From Escherichia coli (GTDB taxonomy: Bacteria; Pseudomonadota; Gammaproteobacteria; Enterobacterales; Enterobacteriaceae), in assembly GCF_003334355.1 (NCBI RefSeq), contig NZ_QOWP01000097.1: DNA of 1,123 nt; one strand, written 5' to 3'. The position numbers were made by a program, and so were the translations under genes. The notes beneath the pieces are model-generated. The model was not told the origin of the DNA and searched no databases. It saw nothing but the letters and a program-made list of their open reading frames with translations. Positions 1 to 1,112 of this stretch are shown piece after piece; positions within the stretch are counted from its first letter, which is position 1, and the number at the start of each line of letters is the position of its first letter.

Positions 1-1100
1 TAGTTTCTGTCCATGGCTGCTTTTCGCATCTTACGTCTTAACCCTGCCTTGAATACCTTATCATTCGTCAAAATATTAATAGCAATGTGCCGTATCCCTG
101 AAAATAATTCTGCTGCATTTCCTCTTCTTATTTTGCAGTCGTCTTCATTCATTACCACGTCCAGACGCCAGTGCAGCTTATTCTCCACGTGCCAGTGATT
201 TCGGATCGCTGTGGCGAATTTCTCAGCGGTTAAATCAGCAGAACTGATATAATATCTGACCGTTATTTCTGGCTCTTTCTTTTGTTCTGCTATTATGGAC
301 CGAAAGGAGACTGCCACGCATAATTTCTTCAGCCCTTTCCATTCAAACGTGAAATCAATAAGTTCATCAGGGACATCGCAAACAATATGAAGACGGATTT
401 CTTCTCTGCCGTGACTCTTTTCACTCATTGCGTAACTGTCATGCTCTGGATTATTTAATTCTTTCAGCGGAAATTTTTCCTCAAAGGCTTTATTTAGCCG
501 CCCCTGGTTTCCTTTTACCGCGAATAAATAATCACCTCCCTGTTTTTGTATCTTCTCTGCAATATCTTTCTGGCAACCCATCGCATCAGTTGTGATGATT
601 TTTCCTTTAATATCCAGCATGTTAAGAAGTTCTGGGATAGCTGTAATCTCATTAGATTTCTCATCCGTCTTGATCTGTCCGATGACCAGACTGTGCATTG
701 TTGAGAACGCACTAATGACATGAATCGCTCCCCTGCGGCGACTCTTGTCATAAGAGTGCCGGAGCGTTTTTCCATCAATTGCAATGACGTCTTTATCATC
801 TGAAGAATGGCAGTCACGCATCCAGTTAATAAAGCACTCGTGAAATTTTGCAGGACTGATACAGGATACAACTCTGGCAATGGTATCGTGAACAGGAATA
901 CCATTTTCAAAATCACCATATTGCTTCAAAAAATCGAGATGTGTTTCCCCAAAATCCTCTATATCTTCCCAACCTTCTGCACCAGAAATAACGGCACAAA
1001 TAGTCAACAGTAGAATATCCGATAATTTATGTTCCACTTTCCAGGGTTGTCTGTAATCGGGGATAATAGAAATATGTTCCATCAATTTTTTAAGTTCCAT
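1..1100 (-). CDS. ISAs1-family DDE transposase (H-repeat-associated protein, H-rpt; YhhI/YdcC-like), 3' end truncated by window edge
   Basis: Hand translation of the reverse complement from the ATG at 1100..1098 gives an uninterrupted 366-codon frame: [366 protein letters not shown], followed by a partial codon TA at positions 2..1. From memory this closely resembles the E. coli H-repeat proteins (ISAs1 family), including the [15 protein letters not shown] and NHWHVEN motifs. I cannot tell which paralog it is, so no gene symbol is given. No stop codon is in the window; the C-terminus lies beyond position 1. Confidence 0.9.
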
Positions 1101-1106
1101 TTTGTT

Positions 1107-1112
1107 CTCCTT
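1107..1112 (-). promoter_or_regulatory. Shine-Dalgarno ribosome-binding site for the transposase gene
   Basis: On the minus strand the sequence reads AAGGAG (plus-strand ctcctt at 1107..1112), followed by a 6-nt spacer (AACAAA) and the ATG at 1100..1098. This is canonical SD spacing. Confidence 0.65.

Follow-up and report, generated by a model that had tools for sequence, protein, structure and literature searches.

Conserved residues D109, D172 and E306 as the probable catalytic triad of the Escherichia coli ISEc1 (YhhI) transposase

A stretch of Escherichia coli DNA of 1,123 nucleotides (contig NZ_QOWP01000097.1, assembly GCF_003334355.1; hereafter the window, to whose positions coordinates refer) carries on its minus strand an open reading frame (ORF) for YhhI, the transposase of the insertion sequence ISEc1 (H-repeat), and raises the question of which acidic residues of this protein form the Asp-Asp-Glu (DDE) catalytic triad. 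A preliminary description had proposed D109, D172 and E306. Minus-strand translation showed that it had read the codons, coordinates and motifs of all three correctly, and their identification as the triad is supported by conservation, by the match to an RNase H-like fold and by canonical topological positions. The window therefore very probably encodes residues 1-366 of YhhI, an ISAs1-family DDE transposase specified by a single ORF, with these three residues as its catalytic triad. The features that carry this assignment are as follows.

1..1100, minus strand: yhhI / ISEc1 (H-repeat) transposase ORF, with ATG at 1100..1098 and 366 codons open (translation).
774..776, minus strand: D109, predicted first catalytic Asp, GAT codon in the motif IAIDGKT, on beta1 (residues 105-113).
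585..587, minus strand: D172, predicted second catalytic Asp, GAT codon in the motif TTDAMGCQ, first residue past beta4 (168-171).
183..185, minus strand: E306, predicted catalytic Glu, GAG codon in HWHVEN, on helix 292-316 within the motif H302-W303-x-x-E306-x-x-x-H310.

A D..D..E triple is uninformative when taken alone, because the protein holds 28 Asp and 29 Glu residues. Relatives were searched among 1.84 billion cluster representatives, with 30,132 found at E <= 0.001, and conservation was read from an alignment of 124 sequences, namely the window protein and 123 full-length relatives of 35-53% identity, to which the family counts given below refer. The possibility, raised in the preliminary description, that one of the triad positions varies across the family was checked on this alignment: D109 and D172 are each Asp in 123 of the 124 sequences, with a single Glu at either position, and E306 is Glu without exception. 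Of the 57 acidic positions, no more than 10 hold an acid in at least 90% of the sequences (D15, D72, D109, E151, D172, E234, E306, D314, E319 and D320). Since the triad residues are not the sole conserved acids, position in the fold must choose among the candidates, and by this measure beta1 bears no conserved acid other than D109, and the beta4 exit none other than D172.

The AlphaFold2 model built from the family alignment was very confident, with a mean predicted local distance difference test (pLDDT) score of 95.4 and a predicted template modelling (pTM) score of 0.92. In this model a helical N-terminal domain is followed by beta1 (105-113), beta2 (126-133), beta3 (138-145), alpha1 (148-161), beta4 (168-171), a helix (178-186) and beta5 (190-195), and then by a beta-rich insertion (221-286), the long helix 292-316 and two further helices. 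The layout is that of DDE / RNase H-like enzymes, with conserved acids at three places: an Asp on beta1, a second Asp where beta4 ends and a Glu on the helix past beta5. The best structural matches of the model were Tn5 and piggyBac/piggyBat, and its structural neighbours were transposases and integrases throughout. Both Tn5 and piggyBac transposases have a beta-rich insertion at a like place, between beta5 and the catalytic helix, although piggyBac and piggyBat are eukaryotic, much larger and equipped with other DNA-binding domains, and no sequence relation between them and the ISEc1 protein was detected. The insertion and the domains between which the protein is divided by Pfam are located as follows.

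819..1079, minus strand: N-terminal helical domain, residues 8-94, PF13808 DDE_Tnp_1_assoc (Pfam E-value 1.2e-33).
72..797, minus strand: predicted catalytic DDE / RNase H-like domain, residues 102-343, PF01609 DDE_Tnp_1 (Pfam).
243..440, minus strand: beta-rich insertion domain, residues 221-286, separating beta5 from the catalytic helix (AlphaFold2 strands 221-229, 232-242, 259-269 and 278-286).

The preliminary description had likened this layout to that of IS4-like/ISAs1 transposases, and here the two halves of the label part company. The protein scored 418.2 bits against the NCBIfam equivalog model NF033564 (transpos_ISAs1; cut-off 70), with residues 29-344 covering profile positions 1-314 of 314, in contrast to 18.7 bits against the IS4 model (cut-off 115); it also lay far under the cut-off of the IS1380 model. 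The organization is likewise of ISAs1 type, with one long, frameshift-free ORF encoding PF13808 and then PF01609, an architecture shared with its close relatives; the closest known proteins are the ISAs1 family transposases (ISEc1 / E. coli H-repeat proteins YhhI, YdcC, YbfD). The defining mark of the IS4 family is the signature Y-(2)-R-(3)-E-(6)-K, or YREK (PMC2266710). This signature was not found around E306 in the 124-sequence alignment: the residues at -7, -4 and +7 are I299, H302 and L313, position 299 being I, V, T, A or S across the family and Tyr never the majority, H302 being His in 124 of 124 sequences and L313 Leu in 121 of 124. The transposase is therefore assigned to ISAs1 and not to IS4 proper, and the lack of YREK agrees with ISAs1 as a separate family. 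A Pfam search gave no match in the window protein to PF02281, the Tn5-type C-terminal dimerisation domain that is confined to the IS50 subgroup, and full-length YhhI stops at residue 378, soon after the helices that come behind the catalytic Glu. At the other end, the N-terminal helical domain, which probably binds the terminal inverted repeats at the transposon ends, bears a conserved F..l.DPR motif (D15 in 121 and R17 in all 124 sequences), and secondary-structure-aided hhalign paired its D15-x-R17 with the LGDPRR segment of the Tn5 DNA-binding domain.

The gene itself is well known. Along its whole length the window DNA matches E. coli chromosomes at 99.6-99.8% identity, and there the gene is annotated as yhhI, 'ISAs1-like element ISEc1 family transposase', and the window protein is identical at 363 of 366 residues to the 378-residue YhhI of a K-12-type locus (L001). 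There is no substantive difference from either the ISAs1 family or K-12-type YhhI; the window copy is only truncated and carries three substitutions. In the K-12-type record yhhI follows rhsB and yhhH and precedes yhhJ, a position that identifies it as the H-repeat of the RhsB element. The window thus holds an ordinary copy of the long-annotated E. coli yhhI, and with the ISAs1 family already classed as DDE, the finding was already known.

The catalytic triad of Tn5 transposase consists of D97, D188 and E326. Tn5 (IS50, IS4 family; PDB 1MUH/1MM8/4DM0) shares only about 9-10% sequence identity with the ISEc1 protein; its sequence and residue numbering were checked against PDB 3ecp/1muh, and it was modelled in the same manner, from a 65-sequence alignment of the Tn5 family. 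The first Asp falls within beta1 in both models (D97 in strand 92-103, D109 in strand 105-113), the second is in both the first residue past beta4 (D188 after strand 183-187, D172 after strand 168-171), and the Glu lies on the corresponding helix, 9 residues before its end in Tn5 (E326, helix 309-335) and 10 before its end in ISEc1 (E306, helix 292-316). The spacing between the two Asp residues is 63 residues in the ISEc1 protein versus 91 in Tn5, and that between the second Asp and the Glu 134 versus 138. The Tn5 YREK is replaced by [IV]299, H302, E306 and L313, and the 378-residue ISEc1 protein is without the C-terminal region of about 100 residues that holds the dimerisation domain in Tn5. 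Dynamic-programming alignment of the two proteins, combining profile scores and secondary structure under six parameter sets, paired D172 with D188 in five settings and E306 with E326 in five, while D109 fell on D97 in three and on its neighbour E96 in the other three. When the profile of residues 295-345 was scanned without gaps along the whole Tn5 family, the top offset was +20, which sets E306 on E326 (z 4.9; second 3.1) and also W303 on W323 and E319 on E339, both invariant in their families; secondary-structure-aided hhalign likewise paired E306 with E326, and the end coordinates of the Pfam model fit this offset to within one residue. Gapless scans for the two Asp motifs did not discriminate, the correct offsets ranking second (displaced by one residue) and fourth, with z of about 3. 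E306 is thus firmly mapped to Tn5 E326, and D109 and D172 can be placed, from the models, by topology plus conservation. Residue mapping through the PF01609 coordinates was rejected, as Tn5 was aligned only from residue 125 and D97 was missed, so that it was usable for the Glu end only. The PF01609 model takes the Tn5 beta2 strand 'HSVLLLEATT' as its first motif, a reason for care when catalytic residues are taken from that alignment.

DDE transposases such as Tn5 use a triad of carboxylates and two metal ions to cleave the element ends and then to carry out strand transfer. In the ISEc1 protein the three residues are present and conserved, the fold is matched, and they occupy the canonical topological positions. 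By analogy with Tn5, the carboxylates of D109, D172 and E306 would bind two divalent metal ions (Mg2+), which would activate water to nick the element ends and would then prime the released 3'-OH for attack on the target DNA. Both metal binding and chemistry are here carried over to the ISEc1 transposase from the established mechanism of such enzymes.

Several observations weigh against this assignment, some concerning the choice of residues and others, taken up below, the activity of the protein. E151 and D314 are as invariant as E306 (124/124), and E319 (121/124) and D320 (123/124) nearly so. Sequence-driven alignments set D109 opposite Tn5 E96 and the second Asp off by one to a few residues, and plain hhalign of the ISAs1 alignment, against both the Tn5 sequence and its 65-sequence family, gave spurious local matches at probabilities of less than 1%, because the profiles are too narrow (effective number of sequences, Neff, of about 4). 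Plain profile-profile comparison being non-significant, the pairing with Tn5 therefore rests on predicted secondary structure together with a weak sequence signal. The secondary-structure-aided hhalign alignment was full-length but had a probability of 0 and served as illustration only, and a PDB sequence search with the protein and the 124-sequence profile gave only chance matches (e.g. CheY and YenC2, E > 0.4), so that sequence alone gives no link to a transposase of solved structure. Fold and family could be right and one triad member misassigned, the true metal ligand being E151, D314 or E319/D320, an outcome that we consider very improbable. In its favour, E151 sits at the N-terminus of alpha1, D314 lies two turns past E306 and E319 and D320 fall in the following loop, the Tn5 alignment is ambiguous by one residue at both Asp positions, and RNase H proper holds a catalytic Glu on alpha1, at the same place as E151, so that a residue on alpha1 can take part in an active site of this fold. 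None of these acids, however, competes with D109 on beta1 or with D172 at the exit of beta4, and E306 stands opposite Tn5 E326 in every sequence-informed alignment. E151 is set opposite Tn5 K164 and D314 opposite T334 or K333, residues without a catalytic role in Tn5, whereas E319 faces E339 or the neighbouring A338, 13 residues past the catalytic Glu in both families, and is therefore a conserved non-triad position.

Catalysis by the YhhI protein is a prediction, and an intact triad is no proof of mobility. The triad may thus be right and the chromosomal copy still not be a working mobile element, being instead a fixed, perhaps domesticated or dormant, H-repeat gene beside rhsB; this we regard as rather unlikely. 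One genome paper notes that the H-repeat has not been seen to transpose (PMC3032704); the gene keeps its fixed place between rhsB-yhhH and yhhJ in the K-12-type record, and no flanking direct repeat was seen at the L001 element. The full-length form is extremely widespread, one cluster of 378-residue proteins counting 38,559 member sequences, and 5343 complete E. coli genomes out of 5426 contain a match to the window DNA, the median genome at 5 places. The same multiplicity of copies, with 25 of the matching places on plasmids, nevertheless implies past mobility, and the transposase ORF is intact across the window. Elements of the ISAs1 family are expected to be about 1.2-1.5 kb long and bounded by terminal inverted repeats, and the ISEc1 / H-repeat element of the related L001 locus, outside the window, spans positions 2880-4170 of that locus (1291 bp) and keeps recognisable repeats:

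L001, 2880-2897 and 4153-4170: terminal inverted repeats CAGGGAAAGATCATCAAA and CAGGGCAAGATTACGAAA, respectively, imperfect, beginning CAGGG and matching at 14 of 18 positions.

The stop codon of the transposase lies inside the right terminal repeat of this element. Another member of the family, ISPmar4, has been captured transposing into a trap plasmid (PMC3281130). With the triad and the ORF intact and the terminal repeats kept in related genomes, the assignment of D109, D172 and E306 is consistent with catalytic competence, and the preliminary description, which had used these very words, had chosen the right strength of claim.

The surroundings of the active site contain further conserved residues, grouped in two segments.

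648-659, minus strand: K148-S149-N150-E151 motif at the start of alpha1, directly past beta3 (E151 at 648-650; family alignment).
159-197, minus strand: invariant H302, W303, E306, H310 and D314 on the catalytic helix (residues 302-314; family alignment).

N150 and E151 are found in all 124 sequences, and K148 and S149 are kept by 90% or more of them; the secondary-structure-aided alignment sets D146-E147-K148-S149-N150-E151 opposite D158-E159-K160-(E161)-S162-G163-K164 of Tn5, in whose family E161, S162, K164 and W165 are invariant. On the catalytic helix, H302, E306, H310 and D314 form a stripe spaced i, i+4, i+8 and i+12. In Tn5 the catalytic Glu is flanked by R322, K330 and K333, which are implicated in end and hairpin handling. 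The places of the IS4 basic residues R322 and K330 are taken in the ISEc1 protein by H302 and H310, and those of K333/T334 by L313/D314. It is conceivable, if doubtful, that ISAs1-family transposases run a variant active site, in which the H302-E306-H310-D314 stripe stands in for the IS4 basic residues and E151 is added. Were the metal site lined by these residues, ISAs1 enzymes could differ from Tn5/Tn10 in metal coordination or in second-strand processing.

The residue assignment is the expected one and, with the gene long annotated, matters little. Its modest value lies in a testable residue map (D109, D172 and E306, with the invariant H302/W303/H310/D314 and E151) for a poorly studied family that has the Tn5 fold but neither the IS4 YREK signature nor the Tn5 C-terminal dimerisation domain. 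No published assignment of DDE residues for the ISAs1 family was found in the literature searched, and 'IS4 family goes genomic' makes no mention of ISAs1. Apparent mentions of ISEc1 in PMC7482066 were discarded as prefix matches to other insertion sequence names.

The remaining features of the window concern the reading frame and its differences from K-12-type YhhI.

1107..1112, minus strand: putative Shine-Dalgarno-like AAGGAG, 6 nucleotides upstream of the ATG (sequence reading).
1044-1046, minus strand: T19P relative to K-12-type YhhI (protein comparison).
444-446, minus strand: A219E, likewise.
264-266, minus strand: M279I, likewise.

The three substitutions spare the catalytic positions and all those that the family alignment lists as conserved. 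The main ORF, which begins with MELKKLMEH, is uninterrupted over 366 of 378 codons and exits the window at base 1; its final 12 codons and stop fall past that base, and both element ends lie outside the window. The remaining ORFs are short and in other frames or on the opposite strand, the longest, of 134 amino acids, overlapping the main ORF out of frame. Finally, some database proteins (P0076, P0093, P0098 and P0120) carry Rhs/YD-repeat or other domains (e.g. PF05593, PF05954 and PF20148) fused to a segment of an ISAs1 transposase, and these proteins are probably products of gene-calling read-through at Rhs loci and not real fusions.
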